Source: Myxococcales bacterium
GTDB lineage: Bacteria > Myxococcota > Myxococcia > Myxococcales > UBA5297
DNA: 64,000 nt
Assembly: GCA_031552145.1 (NCBI GenBank)
Contig: JAVBMV010000003.1
Location: 211,930 to 275,929 of the forward strand
Direction: 5' to 3'
Under the pieces are notes generated by a model. The model saw only the letters and a list, made by a program, of their open reading frames with translations. It was not told the DNA's origin and made no database searches. Made by a program: the position numbers and the translations under genes. Within the stretch, counting starts at the first letter, position 1, and the number at the start of each line of letters is the position of its first letter. Of this stretch, positions 36,604 to 63,045 are shown in pieces.

Positions 36604-36787
36604 GTCATTCCCTTCGCGGTCTATCCGCGCCGTGGTGCTATCGCCCAGCGCCGCGGCGCCGTCAACCTTTGCGACATGTAGTCGCGAGTGATCTTCACTC
36701 TGACCAAACGGATTGACTGCTCTCGAGGTCCGCGTTCCCATTGCCCACAGAGAGTGGCGAGCTCGGGCGCCAGAGACGTCCTCGCTA

Positions 36788-37810: not shown

Positions 37811-37924
37811 GGCGCGGCAACGTATCGCAGCGCGCTCCGGTAGCACCAGCGCTGGCGCCTCCCCTGCCCTTCGGGTAAGAGCCTTCACTCGCCGCGATGG
37901 GCGGCCGTTTGCCGCAGGTGCGCG

Positions 37925-38719
37925 ATGAGAGTTTGCAGATTCGAGACGAACGAAGGACGCCAGGCCCATGGCCTCATCGAAGGGGACGAGGTCGCTGCGC
38001 TCGAGGAAATGCCCTTCGCGGCGCCGGGCATACCGCGCCCGCTCCATGAGCGGCTGCCGCTCTCGCAGGTGCGCCTCCTCGCTCCGGCGCTCCCCTCCAA
38101 GATCGTGGGCGTGGGGCTCAACTACCGCGCGCACGCCGAAGAGATGCGCAAGCCGCTCCCGGCGCAGCCACTGATCTTCCTGAAACCGCCGAGCGCCCTC
38201 CTCGATCCGGAGCGCGCGATCGCGCTGCCTCCCGAGAGCGGCGAGGTGCACTTCGAGTCGGAGCTGGCCCTCGTCATCGGCCGAGAGACCCGGCGCGTCA
38301 CCCCGCGCGAGGCGCGCGCCTGCATCTTCGGCTACACCTGCTTCAACGACGTGACGGCACGCGACATCCAGCGCGCGGAAACCCAGTACACGCGCGCCAA
38401 GGGCTTCGACACCTTCGCGCCCTTCGGCCCCTGGATCGAGACAGAGCTCGACCCCACCCATCTCTCGATCGAGGGGCGACTCGACGGCACCGTGCGGCAG
38501 CGCGGAAATACCAGCGACATGATCTTCGATGTCTTCGAGCTGGTCTCCTTCATCTCGCGTGGGATGACGCTGATGCCGGGCGATGTGATCACCACCGGGA
38601 CGCCGCCTGGCGTGGGACCGCTCGCGCCCGGAAATCTCTTCGAGGTCGAGGTCGAGGGGATAGGGTGTTTGCGGAACAGGGTGGAGCGCGAGGTGCTAAC
38701 CTCTCCTCGTCATGATTAG
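37925..38719 (+). CDS. Fumarylacetoacetate hydrolase (FAH) family protein
   Basis: 264 aa with KIVGVGLNYRAHAEE, HFESELALVIG, FGYTCFNDVTARD and PGDVITTGTPPGVG. Confidence 0.9.
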   Translation: MRVCRFETNEGRQAHGLIEGDEVAALEEMPFAAPGIPRPLHERLPLSQVRLLAPALPSKIVGVGLNYRAHAEEMRKPLPAQPLIFLKPPSALLDPERAIALPPESGEVHFESELALVIGRETRRVTPREARACIFGYTCFNDVTARDIQRAETQYTRAKGFDTFAPFGPWIETELDPTHLSIEGRLDGTVRQRGNTSDMIFDVFELVSFISRGMTLMPGDVITTGTPPGVGPLAPGNLFEVEVEGIGCLRNRVEREVLTSPRHD

Positions 38720-39743
38720 AGCCCTGCTTATCATCTGCGCCTCGCTCTTCCTCCTCGCCGCCGCCGCGGCGCTCGGCGCCTGGCTGTGGCTTCGCGCACA
38801 GCTCGACGCGCCGGGGCCGATGCCCACAGATGTCGACCCTGCCGGGCCCGTGCTCTTCAAGGTGGAGCGCGGCGCCACTGGAAAGGGCGTGGGAAACGCC
38901 CTGGCCAAGGAGGGGCTGCTGGAGCATCAGTTCGTGTGGCGCTACCTGCTCTGGAGCGAGGGCGGCCTCTCGGTGAAAGCGGGGCGCTTCGAGCTGGCGC
39001 GCGGGATGAGCCCCAGGGAGTTGCTGCGCGCGCTCTCCAACCCACCTCTGCCCGAGGATGAGCCCATCGCGCTCATCGAGGGGTGGCGCCTGCGCGACTC
39101 GGACGCGCTCCTCGCGCAGCAGGGTTGGTGCGCTCCCGGCGCCTACCTGGAGGCTGCGCTCAATCCGGGCCGCTTCAAGGCCAGCTTCCCGCTGCCCGCC
39201 GCCTCGCTCGAGGGATATCTCTACCCCGAGACCTACCGCATGGTGCGGGAGGGGTTCGAGATTCGGAACTTGATCCAGCGCCAGCTCGACACCTTCGGCA
39301 TGCGCTTCGCCCTGCCCTACGCCGAGGAGATCGCTCGGAGCGGCCGCACGCTGCACGAGCTGGTAACGATGGCCTCGATGCTGGAGCGCGAGGAGCCTAC
39401 CCCCGCCAACCGCCCGCTGGTGGCGGGCATCCTCTGGAAGAGGCTGGCGAAGGGAATGGCGCTGGGCGTCGATGCCACCAGCCGTTACGAGCTTGCCGAG
39501 TGGAACGACCGGCGCGCCTTCCTGGTTCAGCTGCGCGATCCCAAGTCGCTTTGGAACACGCGCCTGCGGAAGGGCCTGCCCCCGGGCCCCATCGGCGCCC
39601 CCGCGCTCGAGTCGCTCCTCGCCGCGCTGCGACCGATAGAGAGCGACTACTGGTTCTATCTGCACGACGCGACCGGCGCCCTCCACCCATCTCGCAACGG
39701 TCAGGAACACGAGGCCCTCCGCCGCATGCACAACGTCTATTAA
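38712..39743 (+). CDS. mltG: Endolytic murein transglycosylase MltG (YceG-like)
   Basis: 343 aa with an N-terminal TM. LVTMASMLEREEPTPANRPLVAGILWKRL, LPPGPIGAPALESLLAAL and YWFYLHD. Overlaps the FAH gene end by 8 nt. Confidence 0.9.
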   Translation: MIRALLIICASLFLLAAAAALGAWLWLRAQLDAPGPMPTDVDPAGPVLFKVERGATGKGVGNALAKEGLLEHQFVWRYLLWSEGGLSVKAGRFELARGMSPRELLRALSNPPLPEDEPIALIEGWRLRDSDALLAQQGWCAPGAYLEAALNPGRFKASFPLPAASLEGYLYPETYRMVREGFEIRNLIQRQLDTFGMRFALPYAEEIARSGRTLHELVTMASMLEREEPTPANRPLVAGILWKRLAKGMALGVDATSRYELAEWNDRRAFLVQLRDPKSLWNTRLRKGLPPGPIGAPALESLLAALRPIESDYWFYLHDATGALHPSRNGQEHEALRRMHNVY

Positions 39744-39749
39744 AAAACG

Positions 39750-39783
39750 CGCCCGCTCTCCGGGGCCGGCCGGGGAGCGGGCG
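39750..39783 (-). terminator. Rho-independent terminator, canonical for the minus strand (A-tract/U-tract on one side only)
   Basis: 14-bp stem CGCCCGCTCTCCGG (39750-39763) / CCGGGGAGCGGGCG (39770-39783), with one G-U pair and a 6-nt loop. Read on the minus strand it is followed by TTTTTTA (39741-39747). Confidence 0.5.
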
Positions 39784-40178
39784 TCGAGAGTCCACCGATT
39801 GGGCTCTCTACCATCCAATATTTGGCGCCGGGCGCCCCGTCGGGGCTGGAGGAGGCGCTCGGCTTTGCTGTCTCTCGTCGGCGCCCCTTCGTCTCACCGT
39901 GGCTGGCGTCGATGTCGTGACGCAGGAACCTATTGCAACACGAATGCCAATTGCTTCGAGAAACCAGCTCTGGATCGATTTGCCCTGTTTTCAATGAGTT
40001 ACGCGTCTGCACCCCCGCCCGGAGCGAAGCGCATGAATCTCGACCATGACAACAATGTCGTGCCGAAAGGAGTTGCCGGGGGGCGAAGAACCCGCCTGAG
40101 AGCGGAGGGGGGCGAAGAGGCACGCCTGACACCGATGTCGCGCGCTATGACACGTTTGCCATAGGCGCGCCGCACCGC

Positions 40179-41093
40179 TCAGAGAACCGAGCGAAGCGTC
40201 TCGCGCATGCTCCACCGGGGCGAAAAACCCCAGGCTTTCGCCCGCGAGCCATCGGCCGCGCAAAGGAAGCGCAAGTGGTCCAGCTCCTCGGGAGGAATGG
40301 GCGAGAGCCTCAGGTCGTAGAGCCGCTTCAACATCGGGCGCGCCACCAGGTGCGGGAGCGTCAGCGGGCGGCGCTCCAGTTCGCGCAGCGCGGCGGAGAG
40401 CGGGATCTCCCCGGGGCCCACGACGTTGTAGATGCCCCGGACACCTCGCGCCAGCGCGCCCCGGATCGCCTGACAGACATCCTCCGCGTGGATGAGCTGG
40501 ACGAGCGGATCGAAGCCCGCGAGCAGCCAGGGGCGCTCCATCCGCAGCCAGGTGCAGACCGCGTTGCGGATGGTGGGCCCCACGATGTGCACGGGGCGGA
40601 GAATCACCGTCTCTATTGCTGGGTATTTATAAAAGAAGGACTGCGCCAACATATCGGCGGCGACCAGATCGCGGATGGCCGGAAAGGCGGCGGCGCCCGC
40701 CAACGGCGCATCCTCCGTGAGGAAGTTGGAGTTGCCCGGCGAGGGGCCATAGACGGCTACACTCGAGAGGAGCACCACCTTGGCGACGCCGTGGCGCGCG
40801 CAGTAGTCGAAGAGCCGGCTGGTGCCCTCGACGCTGAAGGCGCGGTGCGCGCCGTCGCCCACCCGGGGATCGCGCGTCATCCCGATGTGGATGAGCGCAT
40901 CGAAGCGGCGCGAGCGGAAGAGCTCCTCGCACTTGGACTGGCGCAGGTCGAAGGGAAAGAGCTCGACATCCTTCGGCCGCTCGGGGAAGGGGCGGCGATC
41001 GATCCCCGCCAGCGCGTGCGTTAGGTGCAGGTGGCGCGCGAGGGCGCGCCCCAGATTCCCCGAGATTCCGGTAATTGCCACCGCCTGCGCCAT
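40179..41093 (-). CDS. NAD-dependent epimerase/dehydratase (SDR family)
   Basis: 304 aa. N-terminal ITGISGNLG Rossmann motif and a LSSVAVYG...Y-x3-K-type core. Confidence 0.8.
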   Translation of the reverse strand: MAQAVAITGISGNLGRALARHLHLTHALAGIDRRPFPERPKDVELFPFDLRQSKCEELFRSRRFDALIHIGMTRDPRVGDGAHRAFSVEGTSRLFDYCARHGVAKVVLLSSVAVYGPSPGNSNFLTEDAPLAGAAAFPAIRDLVAADMLAQSFFYKYPAIETVILRPVHIVGPTIRNAVCTWLRMERPWLLAGFDPLVQLIHAEDVCQAIRGALARGVRGIYNVVGPGEIPLSAALRELERRPLTLPHLVARPMLKRLYDLRLSPIPPEELDHLRFLCAADGSRAKAWGFSPRWSMRETLRSVL

Positions 41094-41124
41094 GGCACGG
41101 TTCTATGCCCGCCTTCGGCGAGCG

Positions 41125-42495
41125 TCAAACGAGCGGAGCGGCCTCATGTCCCACGGCGCTCGCCGCGCCCGCCCCTCCAACTCCACCGGAGCGCCCCGAG
41201 GGGGCGCCCTGTGTGGCCGCGGCCTCGATGGCGCGCTCCAGCTCGTCGGCCGTCATCGATTTGGGGCGCACGATGGGCGAGCCCATGGCGCGGTGGAGCA
41301 CGTGCTGCGCGCAGATCCCCATCGCGCGGCTGATACTGAAGAGCACCGTGTAGAAGGAGGCCTCCACCAACCCATAGTTATAGAGAAGCGCACCGCTGGC
41401 CGCGTCGACGTTGGGCCAGGGATCTTTGATCTTGTGGACGCGCTTGAGCAGATCGGGCACCACCGCGAAGATGCGCGCCATTGTCTGGTAGGTGGGCGCC
41501 TCGGGACAGTGCTTGGCACCGAAGGCGTGAAGGGCGAGGAAGCGCGGATCGACCACGCGCAGCACCGCATGTCCGTAGCCCGGCACGACCCGTCCAGCGT
41601 CGAGTGTCGCCTGCGCATGCTCGAGGAGCTGCTGCTCGGAGGGGACGCCGCCAAAGTGGCGCATGGTGTCGAGGATCCAGGCGAGGCACTCCTGATTGGC
41701 CAATCCGTGCAGCGGCCCGGCCAGGCCATTGAGGCCACCCGAGAGCGAGTAGTAGAGGTCGGAGAGTGCCGAGCCAATCGTATGGGCGCTGTAGGCGCTG
41801 ACGTTGCCCCCCTCGTGATCGCAGTGAAGCGTGAAGTAGAGGCGCATCAGCTTGGTCAATTCGCCCTGCGGATCTGGAAGCCCCGTCATGCGCGCGAAGG
41901 AGGCGCCCCAATCGAGGGAACGATCGATCAGGATCGGCGAGCCCTTGTCGAAACGGCGGCGATAGATAAAGGCGCCCAGCTCGGGCAGGCGCGCGAGAAG
42001 GTTACTCGCGTCCTCGAAGGCTGCCTCCCAATACTCTTCCTTCGGCATGTGCGCGTCGTAACGGGCGCGGAAGACCGACTCGCGCTCCATCACCAGGACC
42101 CCGGTGTTGAACATCGCCATCGGGTGGGAGTCGCGCGGCATCGCGCCGATGACGTCGAAGACGTAGCGCGGCAGCTTGGCGCGCGCGGCCCAGTCGATCC
42201 GCAGATCGATCAGCTCCTCCGCCGTGGGGAGCGCCCCACAGATGAGCAGGTGCCACAACTCCTCCGGCAGCCGCTCGGTGAGCTGTGCGATAGGGATCCC
42301 GCGCACGAGGAGCCCGGCGTCGGGCGGCACCGACGAGGTGTCGGTGATGAGCCCCTTCACCCCACGCAGCCCTCCGTAGAGCTGCTCGACGGTCACCTCG
42401 CCCAGCTTGACGCGGCCATGCTCACCGACGATGCGTCGGTAGCGCTCTCTAATCTGCGGAACCTGTGCGGCCAGCCTCTCCTTGAGCAAGCTCAT
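41125..42495 (-). CDS. gltA: Citrate synthase (eukaryote/mitochondrial-like type)
   Basis: Start at MSLLKERL (RBS GGGAGGG). LRGVKGLITDTS, HCDHEGGNVSA, GPLHGLANQE, VVPGYGHAVLR and PNVDAASG. Confidence 0.9.
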   Translation of the reverse strand: MSLLKERLAAQVPQIRERYRRIVGEHGRVKLGEVTVEQLYGGLRGVKGLITDTSSVPPDAGLLVRGIPIAQLTERLPEELWHLLICGALPTAEELIDLRIDWAARAKLPRYVFDVIGAMPRDSHPMAMFNTGVLVMERESVFRARYDAHMPKEEYWEAAFEDASNLLARLPELGAFIYRRRFDKGSPILIDRSLDWGASFARMTGLPDPQGELTKLMRLYFTLHCDHEGGNVSAYSAHTIGSALSDLYYSLSGGLNGLAGPLHGLANQECLAWILDTMRHFGGVPSEQQLLEHAQATLDAGRVVPGYGHAVLRVVDPRFLALHAFGAKHCPEAPTYQTMARIFAVVPDLLKRVHKIKDPWPNVDAASGALLYNYGLVEASFYTVLFSISRAMGICAQHVLHRAMGSPIVRPKSMTADELERAIEAAATQGAPSGRSGGVGGAGAASAVGHEAAPLV

Positions 42496-42609
42496 TGAAC
42501 CCTCCCGCGCGAACAGCGCGCAAGGAGGGCAAATAGCGGCCGGGCGGCGAGCCCGCGGAGCAGAGCGCGCGCGGCGGCGCACTCTATCGTGCCGCGAACA
42601 GTTGGCGGC

Positions 42610-43971
<1,362 letters not shown>

Positions 43972-44047
43972 CTACGATGCCCCAGCAGACCGAATCGGAT
44001 CAACGCCGAATAGCGGCTGGTTCGGCGCCCGCGCTATCTCTATCGCT

Positions 44048-44371
44048 CTAGGTCCGCGGTCTGCGCTTGGCGCTGGGCCTCTTGCGCGGAGAGGAGGAGG
44101 TCGTTCTGCGCGCCCTGCCCTTCGAGGTCGAGGCCCTGCCGAGGGAGGCGCCGCGCTTTCCCGCGCCCCGCTTCGCGCCGCGATGGGCACCCTTCTTGGG
44201 CCGTGCGCCCGCCGCCTTCGGCGCGCGAGGCGACCGTGCCGCCCTCGCGGGGGGGTGTTCTCGCCGCTCAATGCACCGCTCGCAGAGCCTGAAGTCGAGG
44301 TAGTGGAGCAGAGGGAGCGCCTCCGCGCTCTTTCCACAATCTCTGCAGACGGCGGGCAACAGGCGAATCAC
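44048..44371 (-). CDS. Small zinc-ribbon protein with highly basic tail (hypothetical)
   Basis: 107 aa with a GTG start and GGGGGA 4 nt upstream. CRDCG...CERC (Cys4), then a Lys/Arg/Ser/Pro-rich tail. Third-position G/C is high, as in neighbouring genes. No homology recognised. Confidence 0.4.
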   Translation of the reverse strand: MIRLLPAVCRDCGKSAEALPLLHYLDFRLCERCIERREHPPARAARSPRAPKAAGARPKKGAHRGAKRGAGKRGASLGRASTSKGRARRTTSSSPRKRPSAKRRPRT

Positions 44372-44557
44372 CGTGTCCCCCTTTCTTCAGCCGAGGAAGA
44401 ACGTAGCCAGCGGCGCGCTTAATCCTGAAGTCCCAAAGGCGATAGTCCCCTGCCCAAGGGAGCCCCGCTCCCATCGGGGGCGCAACCCCCGGGCGACGGT
44501 CCGCATCGAAGCGCCTCGTGCCACCGAAAGCCGGGCCGCGCGAGGACAGGAGATGCC

Positions 44558-45292
44558 TTGGTCGTACCGAAGCCAGCGCCCAGAGTCGCCGCAGCGGCGC
44601 CATCCCTCCAACTGGAGGAGGTGGGGCGCAGGTTCGGCTCGCGCTGGGCGCTGCGCGCGGTGACGCTCCACATCGAGCCCGGCGCGCGCCTCTTGGTAGA
44701 GGGCGCGAACGGCTCGGGCAAGAGTACGCTGCTGCGCATCATTTCGGGCGCGCTGGCGGCGAGCAGCGGCGCGATCGCCCTCGGCGCGGAGCGCGCTGCG
44801 GAGAGCGCTGCCCAGCGCGCGCGGCGCAGGGCGCTCTGCGCGCTGCTGCCCCAGTCGGGAGGGTATCTCGCGAGCTTTACCGCGCTGGAGAACCTGGCGC
44901 TCTCCGCGCGTTTTCTTGGGGAGCCCTGCTCTCCCCGCGCGCTGCTCCCATTGCTCGAGCGAGCGGGGCTCGCGCCCTTCGCCAGCGCGCCGATCCATAC
45001 CTTCTCGAGCGGCATGCGCAAGCGGCTGGCGCTGGCTCAACTGTGGCTGCGGCGCCCTGCGGTGGCGCTCCTGGACGAGCCCGACGACGCGCTCGATCGC
45101 GCCGGCCTCGCGCTGCTGGCTGAGTCGCTGGAGGAGCTCGCGCGGGCGGGCGCCACCGTGCTCGTCACCTCGCACCGCGGGGAGTGGGCGCGCCGTTGGT
45201 GCGGCCGCGCGCTCTCGCTCTCCAACGGTCGGATCGTTTCGGCGCGTTCGTGCGGAAGCGCGCGGGACGACTCCAGCGCGGGGGGGTGCTGA
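44558..45292 (+). CDS. ccmA: Heme exporter ATP-binding protein CcmA
   Basis: Walker A GANGSGKST, signature FSSGMRKRLALAQL and Walker B ALLDEP. TTG start (no in-frame ATG upstream of the first strand). Its stop overlaps the ccmB ATG. Confidence 0.85.
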   Translation: MVVPKPAPRVAAAAPSLQLEEVGRRFGSRWALRAVTLHIEPGARLLVEGANGSGKSTLLRIISGALAASSGAIALGAERAAESAAQRARRRALCALLPQSGGYLASFTALENLALSARFLGEPCSPRALLPLLERAGLAPFASAPIHTFSSGMRKRLALAQLWLRRPAVALLDEPDDALDRAGLALLAESLEELARAGATVLVTSHRGEWARRWCGRALSLSNGRIVSARSCGSARDDSSAGGC

Positions 45293-45957
45293 TGCTCGCC
45301 GCCTCGCTCAGCAAGGATCTGCTGCTCCTCTGGCGCGCCCGCGCGCAGAGCGCCTCGACGTATGCCTTCGCTTGTACCCTTCTCTTGGCGCTCAGTCTCG
45401 CGGCGGGGCCCGACGCGACGGCGCTGAGGCAGTCGGCGGCCGGCTTTCTCTGGGCCTCTGTCCTTTTCACCTCAAACCTCCTGCTCGCCTCGACCTTTCG
45501 CGACGAGCTGGAGAGCGGCGCGCTCGAGGCGATACTGCAGCTCGGCGCCGCGCCGCGCGCCCTCTTCTTCTCTAAGGCGATCGCCAACGCGCTGCTCGTC
45601 GCGCTGGTGGGGCTGGCGCTGCTCCCCGCGCTCGCCGCGCTCTTCGACGCGACCACGGCGCGCCCGCTGGCGCTCATGGGGCTGGTCCTTCTGAGCGCCG
45701 CCGCCATCTCGGCGCCCGGCACTCTCTTCGCGGCCATCGCCGCCAAGGCGCGCGCCGAGAGCTCGCTGCTCTTGCCGCTGTTGCTCCTGCCGCTGCTCAC
45801 CCCCGTACTGCTCGCCTCGGTACAGGCGACGAGGCTGCTCCTCTTCGGCGATCCGATGGGGCAGCTCATGCCTTGGATGCTGCTGCTCGCCGCCTTCGCT
45901 GCCCTCTTTTGGCCCATCTCTGGACTGCTCTTCGGGGCGGTCCTGGAGGAATCATGA
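45292..45957 (+). CDS. ccmB: Heme exporter membrane protein CcmB
   Basis: Start at MLAASLSKDLLLLWRARAQ. Six hydrophobic segments. TGATG overlap with ccmA and ATGA overlap with ccmC. Confidence 0.85.
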   Translation: MLAASLSKDLLLLWRARAQSASTYAFACTLLLALSLAAGPDATALRQSAAGFLWASVLFTSNLLLASTFRDELESGALEAILQLGAAPRALFFSKAIANALLVALVGLALLPALAALFDATTARPLALMGLVLLSAAAISAPGTLFAAIAAKARAESSLLLPLLLLPLLTPVLLASVQATRLLLFGDPMGQLMPWMLLLAAFAALFWPISGLLFGAVLEES

Positions 45958-53523: not shown

Positions 53524-55584
53524 TTAGCCTCCGCCGCTCGCCTTGGCGGCTTCGTTTGCCTTTAGTCTAGCCCGCAGATCCGCGAAGAAGCTCTTGCCCA
53601 CCTGCACCACCGCGGTACCGTCGTAGAGCGACCGCACGCCCTCCGGGATCTCCTCGAGGAAGCGGGAGGGTGTCCTGGGGATGCGCTTGCCGCGCTGAAC
53701 GCGCTCGGCCGCGCGCGAGAGGAAGAGCCGCTCCCTCGCTCGGGTGATCCCGACGTAGGCCAGCCTGCGTTCCTCGGCCAGGTTCTGCGCCTCTCCCTGC
53801 ATCCCGCCGTGGGGCATCAACCCCTCCTCCAGCCCGCAGAGAAAGACTACCGGCCACTCCAGTCCCTTCGCGGCGTGAAGAGTCATCAGCGTGACGCTGC
53901 TGGCCTCCTCGCCCGAGTCCTCGTCGCGGGTGTCGAGCGCGAAGCGCTGCAACAGCGTCGAGAGCTTGGCGCGCGCCGGGTTTCGCGAAGCGAAGGAGGC
54001 GATCGAATCCAGAAAGGCATCGAGAGCCGCGGCCTTCCGGGCGCCCGCCGCCGCGCTCTTGACCGAGAGGCGCGCCGCCTCGCGCAGGCCCGTGCTCTCC
54101 ACCAGATCGCGAATGACCTCGTCGACCGGCCGCCTCTCGAGGAGCGCCCTGAACTTGTCGAGCAGCGCGACGAAGTCGCCGATGCGCGCTGCGGCCCCGT
54201 GCGCGAGCGTCTCGATCTCTCCCGCGCGCCGGAGCGCCGCCTCGGTCGAGAGGCTCCTCTCCTTCGCCCATTCGCCCACCCGCTCGAGCGTCGTGTCGCC
54301 GATGCCGCGGGCCGGCACATTGATGATCCGGCGCAGCGAGACCTCGTCGCGCGGGTTGTGGAGCGCCTTGAGGTAGGCCACCAGGTCTTTGATCTCGCTC
54401 TTGTCGAAGAACTCTTGCCCCCCGATCATCTGGTAATCGACCCTGGCCTCCCGCAGCGCCTCCTCGAGCGGCCTGGCTTGGAGATTGGTGCGGTAGAGCA
54501 CGGCGATGTCGCTCCCTCGCCACCCGCTGGAGAGCAGCTCGCCGATCTCGCGCGCGATGGCGCGTGCTTCCTCTTCCTCGTCGCCCAGCACCATGACGCG
54601 CAGCTTTTCGCCCTCCCCCTGCGCGGTCCAAAGGCGCTTTGGTTTGCGCTCCAAGTTTCCGGCGATGACGGCGTTGGCGGCCTGCAAAATCGCGCCCGTC
54701 GAGCGGTAATTCTGCTCGAGCCGCACCTCCTTCGCGCCCGGAAAGTGGCGGTCGAACGAGAGGATGTTCTGCACCTCGGCGCCGCGCCACGAGTAGATCG
54801 ACTGGTCGTCGTCGCCCACCGCGCAGACGTTCCGCCGATCGCCAGCGAGCCCGATCAGGAGCTGCAGCTGCGATCGGTTGGTGTCCTGGTATTCGTCGAC
54901 CAACAGATAGCGGTAACGCGCCCGCAGTTTCTCCCGAACCTCCGCATGCTCGGCGATGAGCCGCAGCGGTAGCAGGATGAGATCGTCGAAGTCGACACAT
55001 CCTTGCACCCGGAGGGAGCGCTCGTAGGCCGGCAGCAGCGCGTCGAGCGCTGCTTCGTACTTGTCCACCTCCGCGTCGCAGAGCGCCTCGCTCTCATCGC
55101 CGGGGGAGGCCGCGGCGCGCACCTTGCGCTCCGGATCGCCACACCGCTTGCGGCTGAGCATCATGAGCAGCCTGCGCAGATCGACGCTCTCGTCGTCGAA
55201 GGTCATCTCCCGCATCGCCCGCTTCACGATCGCCACCTGATCGCCAGCGTCGGCGATGGCGAAGCGGCGCGGGTAGCCCAGGTGCTCGATGTGGGAGCGG
55301 AGCAGCTCGCATCCGAAGGCATGGAAGGTGCTGACCGTCAGACCCTTAGCCGCGCGCGGCCCCACCAGCGCGCCTACGCGGGCCCGCATCTCCGTCGCTG
55401 CCTTGTTGGTGAAGGTGACCGCGAGCACGCTGGAGGGGGCGATCCCCTGCTCCAGCATGTGGGCGATGCGATGGACGATGACGCGCGTCTTGCCGCTGCC
55501 GGCGCCCGCCAGCACGAGGAGCGGTCCCTCCACGGTCTGCACCGCCTCGCGCTGCGGAGGGTTTAGTGTCGAGAGATCGAGCAT
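53524..55584 (-). CDS. uvrD: UvrD/PcrA/Rep-family ATP-dependent DNA helicase
   Basis: 686 aa. Motif I AGAGSGKTRVIVHRIAHML, FTNKAATEMR, motif II LLVDEYQDTN and VTLMTLHAAKGLEWPVVF. Confidence 0.9.
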   Translation of the reverse strand: MLDLSTLNPPQREAVQTVEGPLLVLAGAGSGKTRVIVHRIAHMLEQGIAPSSVLAVTFTNKAATEMRARVGALVGPRAAKGLTVSTFHAFGCELLRSHIEHLGYPRRFAIADAGDQVAIVKRAMREMTFDDESVDLRRLLMMLSRKRCGDPERKVRAAASPGDESEALCDAEVDKYEAALDALLPAYERSLRVQGCVDFDDLILLPLRLIAEHAEVREKLRARYRYLLVDEYQDTNRSQLQLLIGLAGDRRNVCAVGDDDQSIYSWRGAEVQNILSFDRHFPGAKEVRLEQNYRSTGAILQAANAVIAGNLERKPKRLWTAQGEGEKLRVMVLGDEEEEARAIAREIGELLSSGWRGSDIAVLYRTNLQARPLEEALREARVDYQMIGGQEFFDKSEIKDLVAYLKALHNPRDEVSLRRIINVPARGIGDTTLERVGEWAKERSLSTEAALRRAGEIETLAHGAAARIGDFVALLDKFRALLERRPVDEVIRDLVESTGLREAARLSVKSAAAGARKAAALDAFLDSIASFASRNPARAKLSTLLQRFALDTRDEDSGEEASSVTLMTLHAAKGLEWPVVFLCGLEEGLMPHGGMQGEAQNLAEERRLAYVGITRARERLFLSRAAERVQRGKRIPRTPSRFLEEIPEGVRSLYDGTAVVQVGKSFFADLRARLKANEAAKASGGG

Positions 55585-55733
55585 GGGGCGCGCCCTTTAC
55601 CAGAAGCGGACCATCTCTGCGTACGTTCCCCCGTGGGACAATCGACGGCCCAGAGCGCCCCGGCGCTTGCCTCGCCAGGCAGCCGATCGATAATCTCTCG
55701 AGACGCTCATAGAGCCCCTGCCTCGAGGCGCCC

Positions 55734-56573
55734 ATGCCCAACAACGAGCCGCAACTCATCCTCTCCATCCCATCCGGGATGATCACCGCAACCTCCCTCG
55801 GCGTGAGCGGCCTCGCCTGGCACCGCAGCCCCGGCTCGGGCAAGTACTTCAAGGGGAGGGCCGTCTTCGCCCTGCTCGCGCTCAAGGATGGGCGCCCCGA
55901 CTTTTCCTATCTGGACGAAGGGCAGTGGCGCGACGCCATGGCCGACACCCTCTCGGCGCTCGAGAAGACGGAGCAAGGCAAGCGCACCAAGACCGCTCTC
56001 TCGAACAATGCCTTCGCAGTCACGCCCATCGACGCCTTCAAGAGCGTTCACCTGATCAAGACGGGTGGCGAGGCGCTGACCATGGAGAACGGCGTCGAAG
56101 TGGCGCGCTTCGAGAACTCCGGCCCCGTGCCCGACGGCATGAGCCCCAACGAGGTAGCGCGGGCCGCCGGCCAGATCGAGCCCAGGGAGCGCCTCCCCCG
56201 CCTTTACTTGGTGATCGCCCCAATCGAGATCGTGGTGCTCTCCACGCTGACTCCTCAAGAGTACGCGTGGTACGCCACTCACCGCCCCGGCAAGCTCTTC
56301 CGGCAGGTCGTCTTCACCGAGATCCGGGCCGACCAGCCGCAGCTGGCCGCGGAGGCGGTCTTCGATTCGGCGCGCGAAGAGATGCTTCAGAAGACTTATA
56401 AGAAGACGAAGACCATCGTCTCGGGCGAGTGCTTCAACAGCATCCCCTTCACCAGTTGGGTAGGGTACGACCGGCGGGAGGAGGGCGGTCTCTATATCGG
56501 CGATGCGCGCCGCCTCACCCTCTGGCGCTTCCCCGAGCGCATCCCACACGCCTGGACCCGCGCCCTGGGCTGA
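55734..56573 (+). CDS. Hypothetical cytoplasmic protein (279 aa, no motif recognised)
   Basis: Balanced amino-acid composition, unlike the Arg/Ala-rich antisense artefacts, and G/C-rich third positions. No signal peptide or TM. Confidence 0.6.
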   Translation: MPNNEPQLILSIPSGMITATSLGVSGLAWHRSPGSGKYFKGRAVFALLALKDGRPDFSYLDEGQWRDAMADTLSALEKTEQGKRTKTALSNNAFAVTPIDAFKSVHLIKTGGEALTMENGVEVARFENSGPVPDGMSPNEVARAAGQIEPRERLPRLYLVIAPIEIVVLSTLTPQEYAWYATHRPGKLFRQVVFTEIRADQPQLAAEAVFDSAREEMLQKTYKKTKTIVSGECFNSIPFTSWVGYDRREEGGLYIGDARRLTLWRFPERIPHAWTRALG

Positions 56574-56770
56574 ACCGTCCCTGCCCGCTCGGGCCGGAAT
56601 GCACCATCTAGTATGCGGTTACTCCGCGGCGGAGAGGCATCGCCCTGGGCAGAGCGAGCGTTCTGGCGTCGCCCCGGTCGGCCGAAGAAAAAAGCGGCAA
56701 CTCTTGCCAGGAGCGCCGTTTTGACCTAACCAGTGCGCCCCTCAAACGAGGCACGACAGAGGTACGACAA

Positions 56771-58858
<2,088 letters not shown>

Positions 58859-58878
58859 CCGACATAGAGGGAGATCCA

Positions 58879-60165
58879 ATGAACCGCAACGAAGCAACGG
58901 CACAGAGTCCCCTTCGTATCCTCGATCGCGTCCTCAACGGCGGCCTCGGCAAGGGCGACCTGGGCGTGGTGATGGCGCCGGCCGGGGTCGGCAAGACGGC
59001 CTGCCTGGTCCAGATCGCGCTCGACAACCTGCTGCGCAACCGCCAGGTGCTCCACTTCGCGGTGGGACAGAGCGTCGAGCATGTCAGCACCTGGTACGAC
59101 GCGCTCTTCGACGACCTGACCCGCATCGCCGAGATCCCCGATCGCGACGAGGCGCGCGCCACGGTGAAGCGCAACAGCGTCATCAAGGCCTTCCCCTCCG
59201 GGGGCTTCGCCATGGCGCGTTTCGACGAGTCGATCGCGCTCTTCGGCAAGCACATGCAGTTCACGCCGAAGGCGATCCTCATCGACGGCCTCGACTGGGC
59301 TCATCCCTCCATCTCGGCGACGGTGCGCGATCTGAAGGAGCGCGCCACCAATCTCGGCGCCGAGCTTTGGCTCACCGCGCAGACCGCGCGCAACGTCACC
59401 CTGAAGTCGGCCGGCACGCCGCCGCCCTGCGACGCCTGCGCGGCGCTCATCACCGTCGGCCTCTTCCTCGAGCCGCGCGGCAGCCACGTCGCGGTCCGCC
59501 TGCTCAAGGACGGCGCCCTGGTGCCCGAGAGCACCGCCTTCATGGCGCTGCACAATGACACCATGCGGCTCGTCGCCGGCGGCGACAGCGCCATCTCCAC
59601 GCGCGTTCCCGCGGCGAACCACACGCTGCTTTCGGGTGGCGCCAACGGCTCCGAGGCCCTCTTCGGCGGCTGCGCCGAGGCGTGGGGGCTTGCCGAGGAG
59701 ACCTTCTCCTTCCCGAGCCACACCCCCGCCCATACGCGCGGGCTGGTGCAGCTCACCGAGGAGGAGCTGGCGGCAGGAGATATCAGCTCCAGCTACCTCA
59801 AGGCGCATATGCACCGCTCCTACCCCGACACCCCGCTCTTCAAGAAGGTGCTCCAGTCAATCTGGCATCAGGTGAACACCGCGGGCGAGGTCTTCTCCAT
59901 CGGGCAGATCCGCGAGGACAAGACCGTCAACGGCGGCACCGGCTGGGCGGTGGAGCTGGCCAAGCACTGGAACAAGCCCGTCCATGTCTTCGACCAGGAG
60001 AAGAACGCCTGGTTCTATTGGCAGAACGGCGAGTGGGTGCTGACCAAGGATCCGATCATCACGCGCGAGCGCTTCACCGGCACCGGGACCCGCTTCCCGA
60101 ACGCCGCCGGCACCGCCGCCATCAAGGCGCTCTTCGAGCGCTCCTTCGGCCCCGCGCCCAAGTAG
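58879..60165 (+). CDS. RecA/KaiC/DnaB-superfamily P-loop ATPase fused to a SLOG (DprA/LOG-like) Rossmann domain; function unknown
   Basis: Start at MNRNEATAQ, with GAGGGAG RBS, 20 nt after the fusA stop. N-terminal half: LDRVLNGGLGKGDLGVVMAPAGVGKTACLVQIAL (Walker A) and AILIDGLD (Walker B). C-terminal half: LLSGGANGSEALFGGCAEAWG and NGGTGWAVELAKHWNKPVHVFD. Confidence 0.8.
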   Translation: MNRNEATAQSPLRILDRVLNGGLGKGDLGVVMAPAGVGKTACLVQIALDNLLRNRQVLHFAVGQSVEHVSTWYDALFDDLTRIAEIPDRDEARATVKRNSVIKAFPSGGFAMARFDESIALFGKHMQFTPKAILIDGLDWAHPSISATVRDLKERATNLGAELWLTAQTARNVTLKSAGTPPPCDACAALITVGLFLEPRGSHVAVRLLKDGALVPESTAFMALHNDTMRLVAGGDSAISTRVPAANHTLLSGGANGSEALFGGCAEAWGLAEETFSFPSHTPAHTRGLVQLTEEELAAGDISSSYLKAHMHRSYPDTPLFKKVLQSIWHQVNTAGEVFSIGQIREDKTVNGGTGWAVELAKHWNKPVHVFDQEKNAWFYWQNGEWVLTKDPIITRERFTGTGTRFPNAAGTAAIKALFERSFGPAPK

Positions 60166-60184
60166 CTTCGGCCAGGAAAGAGCC

Positions 60185-61096
60185 ATGGTGACGAGCGCGC
60201 TCGAAGCCGCGATGCGCGCTCCACCGAAAGCCAAGGCCCGCCTCGAACTCTTCGGGGCGGCCTTCTTTTTTGGCCTCATGGCGGTCGCGGCGCGCTTCGC
60301 CGCGCAGGGCGGCTTTGGCTTCGGGCCGCTCGCCACGATTCGCTTCGGCGTCGGGATGGCGGGCTGCGTCGCGCTCTTCCGGATGCGCCCCGGCCTCTAC
60401 CATCCCGTCAACAAGCGGATGCTCATCTGGCGCGGCCTGCTCGGCGGGCTCGCCGTGTTGCTCTATTTCTTCTCCCTGTCGCGCATCCCCGCGGGTGAAG
60501 CGACGCTCCTGAACAACACCTTCCCCATCTTCGCCACCATCTTCGGCGTGGTGGTCATGAAGGAGCGGGCCACCGTTCATCTCTGGCTGGGGCTGCTGCT
60601 CGCCTCCCTCGGCGTCCTCATCATCCTGGGCATCGGCGGCCTCGACTTCAGCCTCGGCCTGGGCGAGATCGCCGGCATCCTCTCCGCCGTGGTCGCGGCT
60701 TGTTCCACCGCCTCGATCCGGTCGCTGCGCCCCACCGACAACGCCCCCACCATCTTCTTCGCCTTCTGCGCCGGCGGACTCGTCACCTCGCTGCCCCTCT
60801 CCTTCACGGCCTGGCCCAGCGATCCCTTCGTCTGGGCCATCGCGATTGCCATGGGGCTCTGTTCCATGATCGCCCAGCTCCTGATGACCGACTCCTACGG
60901 CCCCCTCACCGTGCCCGAGGCGGCCATCTGGCAGCAGCTAACGCCCGTGGCCAGCTATCTCTGGGCCATCGCCCTCCTCGGAGAGGCGATGCGCCCACTC
61001 GACCTGATCGGCATCCTCTTCGTACTGGGGGGAGTGCTCTGGGGTGGCCTCTTCGGCGGGGAGGCGAAGAGGGGCAGGTGGAGACTTCCTTCGTAG
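60185..61096 (+). CDS. DMT-superfamily (EamA-like) transporter
   Basis: 303 aa with about ten hydrophobic segments in two halves. Starts 19 nt after the preceding stop. Confidence 0.8.
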   Translation: MVTSALEAAMRAPPKAKARLELFGAAFFFGLMAVAARFAAQGGFGFGPLATIRFGVGMAGCVALFRMRPGLYHPVNKRMLIWRGLLGGLAVLLYFFSLSRIPAGEATLLNNTFPIFATIFGVVVMKERATVHLWLGLLLASLGVLIILGIGGLDFSLGLGEIAGILSAVVAACSTASIRSLRPTDNAPTIFFAFCAGGLVTSLPLSFTAWPSDPFVWAIAIAMGLCSMIAQLLMTDSYGPLTVPEAAIWQQLTPVASYLWAIALLGEAMRPLDLIGILFVLGGVLWGGLFGGEAKRGRWRLPS

Positions 61097-61105
61097 CGTC
61101 CTCGC

Positions 61106-62800
61106 TCACCAGGAGAGTCGCTGTACCTTCACCGGAACGGCACTGAAGTCCACGGATGCGCCATTCCCTAGCTGGCCCTCAAGCCCGCGTCCCCAGCACT
61201 TAACCCCTTCACTGGACGTGATTGCGCAGACCGTATCGTCCTGCACCGTCACCTTTGTCACCTCGGAGCAGCCCTGCACTATCGTGGGCCCATGGACCTC
61301 CGCATCGACCGAACCCACCCCAAGCTGGCCAAGGTGGTTTAGTCCCCAGCAAGTTACCCGCCCAGAGGCCAATATCGCACAGCCATTGGACCCACCGAGT
61401 GCAACAGAGACAGCAGGCTCATCAAGATGCACCCGCGTCGGCGGCTCTATGTCGCCTCTCGTGCCATTTCCGATCTGGCCATACATATTGTCCCCCCAGC
61501 AGGTGACGCGCCCTTGGTGGTCCACTGCACAGCCCGCTCCCCCACCAACCCCTACTGACACCGCTCCAGTTACCCCAGGGACGATACGATACGGCAACAG
61601 GGACGGATCTTCATCGGATGGAAAAACAGGATCCAGTAGCGCCCAAATACACTTTACCCGCCCTGCATAGGTCGTGACACAAGAGGCGCCATCTTCGGAG
61701 GCCGAGACGACATCCCACAGGCCTGCCACATATTCAGGAGAGGCATTACACGTCGATGAACCAGTACACCCCCAATACTGAACGCGCATCTCCTTCGTAA
61801 TAACGCTCGTCAGGTCCCAACCACCAGAAATACCAGCTACACGGTCGAGCCCTGTAACAAGAACCGGCTCGTTGCACGACACGCCAAGCATACCTGCGGC
61901 GTTGAGCCCCAGCACGACGCCAGAATCGTTGACCCCGCAGCACTGGACTTTACCATCGCGCATCACCTCGCAGAGATGCCTCCAGCCCATTGTGAACGAC
62001 ACCCCTCCAGAGAGCGCGGGGATTTCTACGGGGACTGGCACAAAGTCCGCAAAGTCACGACCGAAATAATGCATGTCTCCCCAACACATGACCTCTCCAC
62101 TTGCGGAGAGGGCACAGACCGCGCCTATTCCCGTGTCGATCCCCACCGCCTCGAAAGGAGCACAGCATCCTCTTTCGCACCGAATAAAGCCTTCCTCGCA
62201 CTCCAGGTCGCATTCGCCCGAACTACAGATCGCCTTGCCGTGCCGCGTCGCGGGACAGGCCAAACACAGGGGGCCGCACTGCTGCGCGGACTCCTCAACG
62301 CACTCTCCGTCGCAACGGCGTTCGCCCTCCGCACATCCAGGCCCGTCGCAACAGCCGGTTTGGCACCGAAAGAACCCATCATCGCAGACGATTCCACACT
62401 GCGAGTCGACGCAAACGGCGACCCCATTGGCGACCTCGGGACAATCGACGCAGGCGATGCCGCAATGCTCCGGCGATTCATCGTAGCAGACACCCTCACA
62501 TAGTCTCTGGCCGGTGGAACAGTCCACGAGCTCCTCGACGAGGCAACAGCCGCTCTCGCAGGGCTCGTAGTCCTGCTCACACTCGAGCGCGCACTCTCCT
62601 TCCGAACAGACCGCCACTCCGTGTGGCGCTTCTGGACAGACATCGCAGTCGATACCGCAGTTCAGGACTGACTGCTCCACGCAAGCGCCATCACAATAGA
62701 CCTTTGGATCCGCGCACACTCCAACCATACGCTCGGAAGAACAGCCCCAGAACAATAACAGCGCGCCTACTACGAGACACTGCAGACTCGGGAGTCTCAT
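61106..62800 (-). CDS. RCC1-repeat (beta-propeller) secreted/lipoprotein with three N-terminal cysteine-rich repeats
   Basis: Start at MRLPSLQCLVVGALLLFWGCSS (alternative ATG at 62824). RCC1-type CWGDMHYFG, CWGDNMYGQIGNG, CWGLNHLGQLGVG and CWGRGLEGQLGNG. Three ~55-aa Cys repeats at about 62165-62715. Confidence 0.85.
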   Translation of the reverse strand: MRLPSLQCLVVGALLLFWGCSSERMVGVCADPKVYCDGACVEQSVLNCGIDCDVCPEAPHGVAVCSEGECALECEQDYEPCESGCCLVEELVDCSTGQRLCEGVCYDESPEHCGIACVDCPEVANGVAVCVDSQCGIVCDDGFFRCQTGCCDGPGCAEGERRCDGECVEESAQQCGPLCLACPATRHGKAICSSGECDLECEEGFIRCERGCCAPFEAVGIDTGIGAVCALSASGEVMCWGDMHYFGRDFADFVPVPVEIPALSGGVSFTMGWRHLCEVMRDGKVQCCGVNDSGVVLGLNAAGMLGVSCNEPVLVTGLDRVAGISGGWDLTSVITKEMRVQYWGCTGSSTCNASPEYVAGLWDVVSASEDGASCVTTYAGRVKCIWALLDPVFPSDEDPSLLPYRIVPGVTGAVSVGVGGGAGCAVDHQGRVTCWGDNMYGQIGNGTRGDIEPPTRVHLDEPAVSVALGGSNGCAILASGRVTCWGLNHLGQLGVGSVDAEVHGPTIVQGCSEVTKVTVQDDTVCAITSSEGVKCWGRGLEGQLGNGASVDFSAVPVKVQRLSW

Positions 62801-63045
62801 TATCTGCCACCTCGCCGATTTCATGCCACGCTGGCACTCGCACGGCGCCAGTGGCGCCGTGCGCGAATTCTGCCTAAAGATCGGTTGGCACAGTAGCCGA
62901 TCGCTCTCCTCGGTTCAACTTGGAGGAACGGGCGCTCACCGCTCTTACTGTGTATAGTCACCCCAGCGGACGGGCCGACCGGCACATTGTCTGGTACGTA
63001 ATCGGACCCAGGTGACTTACGACCAGCGCCCGGCGAGGAGAGCGC

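Follow-up and report, generated by a model that had tools for sequence, protein, structure and literature searches.

What does a RecA-like ATPase do directly behind the gene for a translational GTPase, and why does it carry a second domain of a superfamily that binds or processes nucleotide-derived signals? The question is raised by a gene in a 64,000-nucleotide stretch of the genome of a Myxococcales bacterium (contig JAVBMV010000003.1), hereafter called the window, the product of which joins a RecA/KaiC-like ATPase to a SLOG domain and the upstream neighbour of which encodes an elongation factor G (EF-G) of the spdEFG1 subfamily. The comparisons presented below lead us, with confidence that stops a little short of an even chance, to a cytoplasmic, ATP-binding and probably oligomeric partner of the G domain of EF-G1 that would tune the translocase, with the SLOG domain adding a nucleotide-derived input. 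It is possible, but more doubtful, that the ATPase family as a whole is an unrecognised dedicated cofactor of spdEFG1 that would control elongation by binding the EF-G G domain in an ATP-dependent complex. The elements at the locus are as follows.

58879–60165, + strand: the target open reading frame (ORF), 428 residues, a RecA/KaiC-like ATPase fused to a SLOG domain (ORF call and translation)
58867–58873, + strand: ribosome-binding site GAGGGAG, 5 nucleotides (nt) 5′ of the target ATG, read from the sequence
56771–58858, + strand: the spdEFG1 ORF, the conserved upstream operon partner, with its TAG stop at 58856–58858
60185 (start): an EamA-family ORF, beginning 19 nt after the target TAG at 60163–60165

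The target ORF is a real gene and not a spurious long ORF of high-GC DNA, because more than 1000 proteins align to it over its full length at about 55–64% identity. A pattern scan with one genome per species confirmed 580 relatives, and the mean column conservation amounts to 0.70 in the C-terminal half versus 0.63 in the N-terminal half. Between the EF-G stop and the target ATG at 58879 there are 20 nt, and the coordinates bear out what an earlier, sequence-only reading of the window had stated on the 428-codon frame, this gap, the target's own GAGGGAG and the EamA gene 19 nt further on. A search for terminator-like hairpins in the EF-G/target intergenic region found none, which, together with the short gap, supports the co-transcription that had been suggested; an Rfam scan of 55500–61500 likewise returned zero matches, that is, no leader and no riboswitch.

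In the upstream protein, each of the five EF-G Pfam domains is present, and the TIGR00484 score is 950 bits. When it is compared with solved relatives, the highest score is obtained with mitochondrial EF-G1 (774 bits), followed by the EF-Gs of T. thermophilus (663 bits) and E. coli (619 bits) and by mitochondrial EF-G2 (385 bits). Its switch I holds the sequence KGKDGVGA, that is, a three-residue KDG insertion. The recycling half of the EF-G split is spdEFG2/mtEFG2. The translocation-specialised half of the subfunctionalised pair is spdEFG1/mtEFG1 (PMC4342817, PMC3150367), for which the KDG indel in switch I is diagnostic according to Margus et al. (PMC3150367); the genome-context analysis in that study deals with the str operon of EFG I (PMC3150367). 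By these sequence marks, the window EF-G is identified as an spdEFG1, the bacterial counterpart of mitochondrial EF-G1. What had been called simply an EF-G paralogue is thus indeed an EF-G lying upstream, and the KDG insertion and the affinity to mitochondrial EF-G1 refine its assignment to this one subfamily.

The association of the two genes was followed in both directions. On the target side, the sample consisted of the 80 best genomic loci from a scan of species representatives, and in 79 of them an EF-G gene lies directly upstream on the same strand, with EF-G identities of 70–83% in nearly all cases; the adjacency to a fusA paralogue, seen once in the window, therefore holds in the wider gene-neighbourhood survey. 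These loci belong to Myxococcota, Acidobacteriota (including Vicinamibacterales), Thermodesulfobacteriota and Bdellovibrionales. Of the 74 EF-Gs with a readable N-terminus, 72 contain the KDG insertion. The gaps between EF-G and ATPase genes are mostly 3–30 nt, and values from −4 to about 30 nt dominate across related loci. On the EF-G side, a degenerate DNA pattern for the KDG motif region was used to collect 120 loci from metagenome contigs, chosen without reference to the target; 52 of the 120 were evaluable, holding the 3′ end of the EF-G gene and at least 800 nt downstream. A homologous ATPase gene is the next gene downstream on the same strand at 48 of these 52 loci (92%), and in 8 of the 48 pairs the EF-G stop codon overlaps with the start codon of the ATPase gene. 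The partner is a short form that ends after the ATPase domain in 46 of the 48 (228–244 residues where the ORF is complete), and in the other 2 it carries a SLOG domain. The pair was found in Myxococcota, Acidobacteriota, Desulfobacterota, Nitrospirota and Spirochaetota (Planctomycetota are left out of this phylum survey, as the Planctomycetaceae EF-G contig ends at the gene), and it thus tracks the known 'spd' distribution of the spdEFG1 subfamily. The spdEFG1–ATPase gene order is probably translationally coupled. Clustering of ORFs at the 80 loci, in which EF-G and the target merged in one component, revealed no third gene family that is broadly conserved.

The short form deserves a closer description. 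For instance, a Polarisedimenticolia EF-G gene is followed 14 nt downstream by a gene of 233 codons, the product of which is 38% identical to residues 1–232 of the target and has no SLOG domain. This short-form ATPase family yielded 2025 matches and is found behind spdEFG1 in Acidobacteriota, Desulfobacterota, Nitrospirota and Spirochaetota, with example loci L085–L089 and L090–L209 (e.g., L087, 3501–4202), and the named members of its clusters come from Desulfobacteraceae, Smithellaceae, a Desulfoluna limicola isolate, Treponema sp. J25, Termitinemataceae and Nitrospirae. All four short forms that were checked sit 14–24 nt after an EF-G gene; three of the four EF-Gs are complete and contain KDG, and the fourth was called short (658 residues) and starts just before the KDG position. 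NCBIfam and Pfam hold no model made for the short-form family, and the NCBIfam scores fall below the cut-offs; its relatives carry precomputed PF06745 or PF13481 matches. Since the gene behind most spdEFG1 genes encodes a homologue that lacks SLOG, the linkage to EF-G belongs to the ATPase half, and the SLOG domain is a lineage-specific addition to the spdEFG1-linked ATPase.

A further line of evidence comes from proteins in which the two partners occur within one chain. In P0155 (738 residues), residues 1–285 are 43% identical to the G and G′ domain of the window EF-G, and an acidic, proline-rich linker leads to residues 318–738, which make up a complete ATPase–SLOG unit 40% identical to the target. 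This architecture is represented by four clusters at 90% identity (P0155, P0277, P0278 and P0279; 732–739 residues, mutually 68–87% identical), which form a small clade of Myxococcota, and it recurs on numerous contigs of separate assemblies. At the corresponding loci (L081–L083; the gene lies at 8001–10205 in L081), the neighbours are feoAB and a DtxR-like regulator in a conserved context, and no full EF-G adjoins. The fused G domain has Ser, Cys or Ala in place of the P-loop Lys, has lost most of switch I and shows xTVGP for DTPGH, while NKCD and the G′ subdomain are well conserved; judged by these motifs, it is a predicted pseudo-GTPase. When the N-domains are placed in a neighbour-joining tree, the fusion proteins group inside the SLOG-bearing clade. 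The fusion is evidence of the Rosetta-stone type for a functional tie between the ATPase and the G-domain end of EF-G and does not prove contact.

The target protein itself is predicted to consist of two domains. The full-length AlphaFold2 model has a mean predicted local distance difference test (pLDDT) value of 85 and places a low-confidence linker between them. Scans of the whole protein with Pfam, NCBIfam and PADLOC gave only sub-threshold P-loop matches and nothing for the C-terminal half, and the database labels of family members are hypothetical, 'AAA family ATPase', 'cytoplasmic protein', 'DnaB helicase C-terminal domain-containing' or 'KaiC/GvpD/RAD55 family'. The features of the first half and of the linker are listed here.

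58879–59583, + strand: N-terminal domain (residues 1–235), RecA fold of the DnaB/KaiC/RadA type (profile and Foldseek)
58975–58998, + strand: Walker A, PAGVGKT (residues 33–40), the P-loop
59065–59070, + strand: Gly63-Gln64, aligned with E227-M228 of T4 gp41 at the catalytic glutamate site of superfamily 4 (SF4)/RecA ATPases
59272–59289, + strand: Walker B, AILIDG (residues 132–137), with D136 kept in 76 of 79 relatives
59584–59610, + strand: inter-domain linker (residues 236–244), with pLDDT below 50 at residues 236–243 and variable length and sequence in the alignment

A profile built from 39 family members matches the helicase domain of phage T4 gp41 with an E-value of 8e-10, and the match is restricted to the C-terminal helicase domain (chain residues 176–365). 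A Foldseek search with the AlphaFold2 model returns gp41, the CI domain of KaiC and the helicase domain of T7 gp4 at E-values of 1e-10 to 1e-9. The profile and fold matches together therefore place the N-terminal half in the RecA fold, on the DnaB/KaiC/RadA branch, as the sequence-only reading had proposed from the P-loop motifs. The kinship with KaiC, RadA and DnaB (PF06745 'ATPase', PF13481 AAA_25, PF03796 DnaB_C; gp41, gp4) extends to the same fold and motif order: as in the gp41/KaiC branch, an 'LD..L.GGL..G' stretch leads into Walker A GxGK[TS], Walker B follows the pattern hhhhD, and the strand-4 'TAQT' aligns with 'TAAQ' of gp41. The known families are nonetheless distant in score. In Pfam, the target reaches 24.3 bits against a cut-off of 32.6 for AAA_16, 19.3 against 27 for AAA_25 and 18.3 against 27 for DnaB_C, and it stays far under the cut-offs of the NCBIfam models for RadA, KaiC and DnaB. 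Unlike KaiC, it has no second RecA domain, and unlike RadA, it has neither a zinc finger nor a Lon-like domain; the N-terminal primase-interacting domain of DnaB is not present, only about 10 residues preceding the RecA core. The genomic partner is a translation GTPase, whereas KaiC, DnaB and RadA are accompanied by clock, replication or repair genes.

The ATP-binding site is intact: all 79 relatives have G36, G38 and K39 of Walker A, followed by T or S at position 40. The canonical catalytic glutamate after strand 2 (gp41 E227, T7 gp4 E343 and the EE pair of KaiC) is absent from the target, in which Gly63-Gln64 occupies the site; gp41 E227 is the residue that was mutated in the stalled-primosome structure 8gao. 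The first position of the dipeptide is Gly in 59 of 79 long-form relatives. We infer that the protein still binds ATP but hydrolyses it slowly or with the help of another residue. Here the long and short forms diverge: the dipeptide contains an acidic residue in 43 of 54 short forms (e.g., SLND, SLEE, SLED and ALDE) versus 19 of 81 long forms; the long forms mostly have GQ, with Gln where many short forms have Asp or Glu. From these counts it follows that the gain of the SLOG domain goes with the loss of the catalytic acid. The Gln at this site resembles, in the alignment, the E-to-Q substitution that is used in the laboratory as an ATP trap, and the long form may accordingly have moved from hydrolysing ATP to binding it in the manner of a switch, while gaining a second, ligand-sensing module. 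In the neighbour-joining tree of the N-domains, 83 of the 85 long forms make up one clade, so that a single origin of the SLOG fusion is partly supported by the sequences. Two metagenomic, SLOG-bearing proteins of 420 and 433 residues (L129 and L194) fall among the short forms in this tree, which may mean that the SLOG domain was gained or lost more than once, or may be an artefact of the tree.

The second half of the protein, for which the window sequence finds no Pfam match at E-values up to 1 and no NCBIfam match, has the following features.

59611–60153, + strand: C-terminal SLOG-superfamily domain (residues 245–425), on the YpsA-like/cpYpsA/YAcAr side (domain model, PHROG and motifs)
59635–59655, + strand: first glycine-rich loop, GGANGSE (residues 253–259), between strand 1 and helix 1, with the GxD/E signature
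59932–59955, + strand: second glycine-rich loop and helix start, GGTGWAVE (residues 352–359), right after core strand 3
59989–59997, + strand: FDQ (residues 371–373), at the end of a core strand, Q373 being invariant and D372 nearly so across the broad family
60079–60093, + strand: GTGTR loop (residues 401–405), with G401, G403 and R405 invariant in the close family and the broad pattern G[TI]G[TS]R

Modelled alone, the C-domain reaches a pLDDT of 93 and a predicted template modelling score (pTM) of 0.89 and shows an alternating beta-alpha Rossmannoid arrangement with a helical insert and a beta-hairpin, in agreement with the three-layer alpha/beta fold around a parallel sheet that characterises the SLOG superfamily. 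The SLOG superfamily was reportedly defined by Burroughs et al. in 2015, and the definitions applied here are those of later papers from the same group. PHROG 768, 'DprA-like DNA recombination-mediator', matches the window C-domain with an E-value of 1.6e-5 and distant members with 1e-10 to 5e-17. When 16 diverse family members were searched against Pfam, 7 matched cpYpsA (best 6.8e-5), 5 matched YAcAr, 4 matched DprA and 2 matched LDcluster4 ('SLOG cluster 4'), and 4 of the 16 weakly matched nucleoside 2-deoxyribosyltransferase (Nuc_deoxyrib_tr) of the sister DrHyd superfamily. A Foldseek search against predicted viral structures (BFVD) gave template modelling (TM) scores of 0.79–0.84 and E-values of 1e-10 to 1e-13 with phage members of the same family; the top matches include an Agrobacterium phage Atu_ph07 protein with a DprA-like RefSeq name, and proteins named 'Molybdenum cofactor carrier', 'DNA processing protein A' and 'DprA-like' match more weakly. 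G352, G353 and T354 are invariant and G355, W356 and A357 nearly so in cellular and phage members, E359 is invariant within the EF-G-linked family, and G257 and E259 of the first loop are invariant, the pattern of the broad family being GGAxGx[DE]. This GxD/E motif is a signature of the YpsA clade (PMC6459960). Because the PHROG, Pfam, BFVD and motif-position lines converge, the C-terminal half is assigned to the SLOG superfamily, and its place on the YpsA-like side is supported. This is in keeping with the SLOG/DprA-like domain proposed in the sequence-only reading, the quoted motifs of which are all present (PAGVGKT at residues 33–40, AILIDG at 132–137, LLSGGANGSE at 250–259 and NGGTGWAVELA at 351–361).

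Compared with the YpsA-like clade (cpYpsA PF12694, formerly 'MoCo carrier'; YAcAr PF10686, formerly DUF2493; YpsA; PHROG 768), the target shares the Rossmannoid domain, the GGAxGx[DE] loop after strand 1 and the GGTG loop with its helix after strand 3, and it has features of its own in FDQ, GTGTR, the beta-hairpin insertion and the helical insert between strands 2 and 3. Known SLOG domains are fused to SIR2, TIR, Macro or transmembrane effectors, whereas this one is fused to a RecA-like ATPase. DprA/Smf proper was considered for the C-terminal half and set aside on account of marginal PF02481 scores and of the missing additional SAM or winged-helix domain of DprA.

The same C-domain occurs well beyond the ATPase. 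A profile search of 1.84 billion cluster representatives gave 2186 matches, and a SLOG-type domain of this kind is embedded in giant, low-GC proteins of 2.8–4.9 thousand residues (P0248, P0251, P0252, P0257, P0260, P0265 and P0268–P0270), several of which begin with MSCVN..SKEF and contain an HExxH motif. A Pfam scan of P0248, P0251 and P0257 returned no matches, and the giant proteins were identified by means of PHROGs and a phage GenBank collection. In Klebsiella phage Pylas, a member of the Schitoviridae (N4-like), the coding sequence at 34439–45898 of NC_049444.1 (L210) specifies a virion RNA polymerase of 3819 residues with a SLOG-type domain at about residues 980–1160. In crAss-like and jumbo phages, copies of the domain stand alone or are embedded in other proteins.

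On the preferred reading, the ATPase domain would bind ATP and probably oligomerise through inter-subunit nucleotide sites, like its RecA-family relatives, and it would associate physically with the G domain of EF-G1 and so tune how available the translocase is to the ribosome or how fast it turns over there. In the lineage of the window, the ATPase would have become a slow, switch-like ATP binder, and the YpsA-like SLOG domain would provide a second input by binding, or possibly cleaving, a nucleotide-derived ligand, for which clade precedent suggests NAD+/ADP-ribose derivatives or adenine nucleotides as candidates. The outcome would be a coupling of translocation to a metabolic or stress signal. 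Accessory factors that alter the turnover of a translocase are known in the FusB-type EF-G-binding proteins and in the fungal ATPase eEF3; FusB is a zinc-binding alpha/beta protein and eEF3 an ABC ATPase, so that their folds are unrelated to that of the target and the analogy is functional only; neither homology nor a common gene context was found. For a SLOG input that gates an oligomeric partner domain, the best mechanistic precedent is ThsA (SIR2-SLOG) of type I Thoeris, in which, according to its published description, a SLOG ligand sensor sets the oligomeric state and activity of the attached domain. ThsA differs in having an NADase effector and in being a mobile defence gene that acts with a TIR signal generator, whereas the target has a chromosomal EF-G partner and no generator nearby.

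Several observations weigh against this reading. At about 8% (4 of 52) of the sampled spdEFG1 loci, no ATPase gene follows and unrelated genes are found instead. In a metagenome-assembled genome of Anaeromyxobacteraceae, a second full-length ATPase–SLOG copy (L010, 6001–7278) has no adjacent EF-G; it is the sole exception among the 80 loci, and the same genome also holds an EF-G-linked copy (L006). The fusion proteins form a small clade and have lost switch I, so that they say little about the EF-G surface that would be contacted. The loss of hydrolysis through Gly-Gln is deduced from an alignment that could be off by one residue. For the SLOG domain, membership is proposed from sub-threshold profile matches and motif logic: the cpYpsA and YAcAr matches with listed scores stand at 17.2 and 14.4 bits, both under the gathering score, and a Foldseek search against solved structures is not significant, the best E-value of 0.04 belonging to generic Rossmann folds. 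Among the 50 matches listed, the top TM scores (0.46/0.53, E-value 0.47) are those of 3imk, a cpYpsA member named 'putative molybdenum carrier', and C-domain profiles run against the sequences of solved structures found no SLOG chain, the sole match being a nucleoside 2-deoxyribosyltransferase at an E-value of 0.77. More generally, the complex with EF-G, ribosome association, oligomerisation, ATPase activity and the SLOG ligand are all predictions. As a separate observation, the neighbours of the unlinked L010 copy encode an alpha/beta hydrolase, a PilZ protein, a major facilitator superfamily transporter and an AcrB fragment.

Among the other explanations, one that we consider unlikely makes the SLOG domain an enzyme, an N-glycosidase or an ADP-ribose-processing activity of the kind known from LOG-type and some YpsA-like SLOG proteins. 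It would add a modification to EF-G1 or to a ribosome-bound nucleotide or take one off, or would make or destroy a small nucleotide signal, and the ATPase would be reduced to an EF-G-docking module. The spacing in GGTGWAVE is the same as in the LOG catalytic motif PGGxGTxxE, and on this spacing E359 may correspond to the LOG glutamate. The invariance of E359 in the EF-G-linked family suits such a role, as do the weak nucleoside 2-deoxyribosyltransferase matches of four family members and the fact that the characterised catalytic members of the TIR-DrHyd-SLOG assemblage all cleave N-glycosidic bonds (PMC9503650). However, phage and stand-alone members have Gln, Ala or Asp at the position of E359, which rules out a catalytic role of this residue in the family as a whole, and the YpsA-like clade is better known for ligand sensing (PMC9503650). 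Moreover, most spdEFG1 partners have no SLOG domain, and its chemistry therefore cannot be essential to the core function.

Also improbable is a nucleic-acid motor or loader, in which a ring-forming SF4/RadA-like ATPase with a DprA-like single-strand-binding domain would work either on ribosomal mRNA or tRNA substrates, in unwinding or rescue beside the translocase, or on single-stranded DNA during recombination. DprA and RecA act as a pair, and this pair likewise combines a SLOG-class Rossmannoid domain with a RecA-fold ATPase; in addition, the closest solved relatives of the N-terminal half are replicative SF4 helicases, the phage relatives of the C-domain are annotated as 'DprA-like DNA recombination-mediator', and a UvrD-type helicase gene is found close by, both in the window and at three related loci. 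The target differs from the DprA-RecA pair, however, in that its ATPase is of the DnaB/KaiC type and its context is translation, whereas that of DprA is competence and recombination. The window protein, like most long forms, lacks the catalytic acid that a processive motor needs, and with only some 10 residues before the core there is no DnaB N-terminal domain. DprA (PF02481) is matched by only 4 of the 16 members searched, at E-values of 0.07 or worse, and cpYpsA and YAcAr are matched better, while UvrD accompanies the target at 5 of the 80 loci (3 adjacent and full-length) versus 79 of 80 for EF-G.

It is quite unlikely that the adjacency reflects shared expression or a historical accident, with an ATPase function unrelated to EF-G. 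The pair is broken at a minority of loci, and the interaction is itself a deduction, both of which leave some room for this explanation; against it stand an order kept across at least five phyla, stop/start overlaps or distances below 30 nt in many cases, the specificity of the pair for spdEFG1 and the independent fusion of an EF-G G domain to ATPase–SLOG.

A conflict or defence module in which the SLOG domain senses an infection-derived signal and guards or shuts down the translocase, leading to abortive infection by an arrest of translation, is the least probable of these explanations, for although SLOG domains are frequent in nucleotide-signalling defence (e.g., ThsA) and the same SLOG family lies inside injected phage proteins, as expected of a counter-defence domain, PADLOC gives only a P-loop-level GajB match (E-value 0.023), the gene has a chromosomal location and keeps its place next to a core translation factor of 70–83% identity in several phyla, the SLOG-less form is the commoner one, and the loci show no TIR or cyclase signal generator, no mobile-element context and no other conserved neighbour. 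Of the two options that the sequence-only reading had left side by side, the conflict module is thus disfavoured by the missing defence-model match and the cross-phylum chromosomal pairing, and the specific EF-G1 linkage favours a ribosome- or nucleotide-linked regulator.

Some further features of the window surround the gene pair. EamA was ruled out as part of the unit, being a neighbour at 0 of the 80 loci. A hairpin resembling a terminator lies at 60238–60260 (+), with 10 pairs, 7 of them G-C, followed by CCTTCTTTTT; it is located about 75 nt past the target stop, within the first 25 codons of the EamA ORF, and may be an operon terminator, an attenuator or a sign that the true EamA start is further downstream. 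Terminator-like sites in the region number 5 versus a shuffled expectation of 2.2, only a modest excess. A UvrD/PcrA-type helicase gene at 53524–55584 (−) precedes the EF-G gene at a distance of 1.2 kb and runs in the opposite direction, and at three related loci (L008, L012 and L014) a UvrD-like gene, 44% identical, is found directly 3′ of the target; the association is loose, and UvrD was ruled out as a partner on tblastn matches at 5 of 80 loci, 3 of them full-length genes just downstream of the target. Just 5′ of EF-G, two putative ORFs of about 280 codons overlap almost fully on opposite strands (55734–56573, +, and 55707–56549, −), with no Pfam match and no tblastn match at the 80 loci. 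At 61106–62824 (−), a protein of 572 residues begins with a signal- or lipoprotein-like segment, continues with several Cys-rich repeats (CxxxC...C) and ends in an RCC1-type beta-propeller (RCC1 repeats at E-values of 1e-19 to 1e-38); it is not conserved beside the target elsewhere.

With regard to novelty, the literature search, which did not extend to most subscription journals, found no description of the target family, of a link between SLOG or KaiC-like proteins and EF-G, or of a conserved spdEFG1 neighbour. Together with the fact that no Pfam, NCBIfam or PADLOC score exceeds its cut-off, this agrees with the earlier impression that the fusion is not a described protein. Both the ATPase–SLOG architecture and its spdEFG1 context thus appear to be undescribed, while both domains belong to known superfamilies. 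The SLOG family defined here, for which no model exists, is common to these bacterial proteins and to giant injected phage proteins, including the virion RNA polymerase of Schitoviridae.

EF-G is among the most studied proteins in biology, and we know of no dedicated protein partner of the translocation-specialised EF-G in the searchable literature. That a gene pair stays together in at least five phyla is a classic sign of a functional complex; the frequent codon overlap, the specificity for a single EF-G subfamily and the natural fusion strengthen the case for one. If the ATPase regulates or assists EF-G1, a new layer of elongation control would exist in Myxococcota, Acidobacteriota, Desulfobacterota, Nitrospirota and Spirochaetota, including relatives of pathogens, and a candidate explanation for the divergence of the spdEFG1 subfamily would be at hand. 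The ligand of the SLOG domain would then represent a new input route from nucleotide metabolism to the ribosome. Bacteria that possess the ancestor type of mitochondrial EF-G1 would run translocation with an extra, regulatable ATPase subunit, and in Myxococcota and their allies this subunit would also read a nucleotide-derived signal through its SLOG domain.

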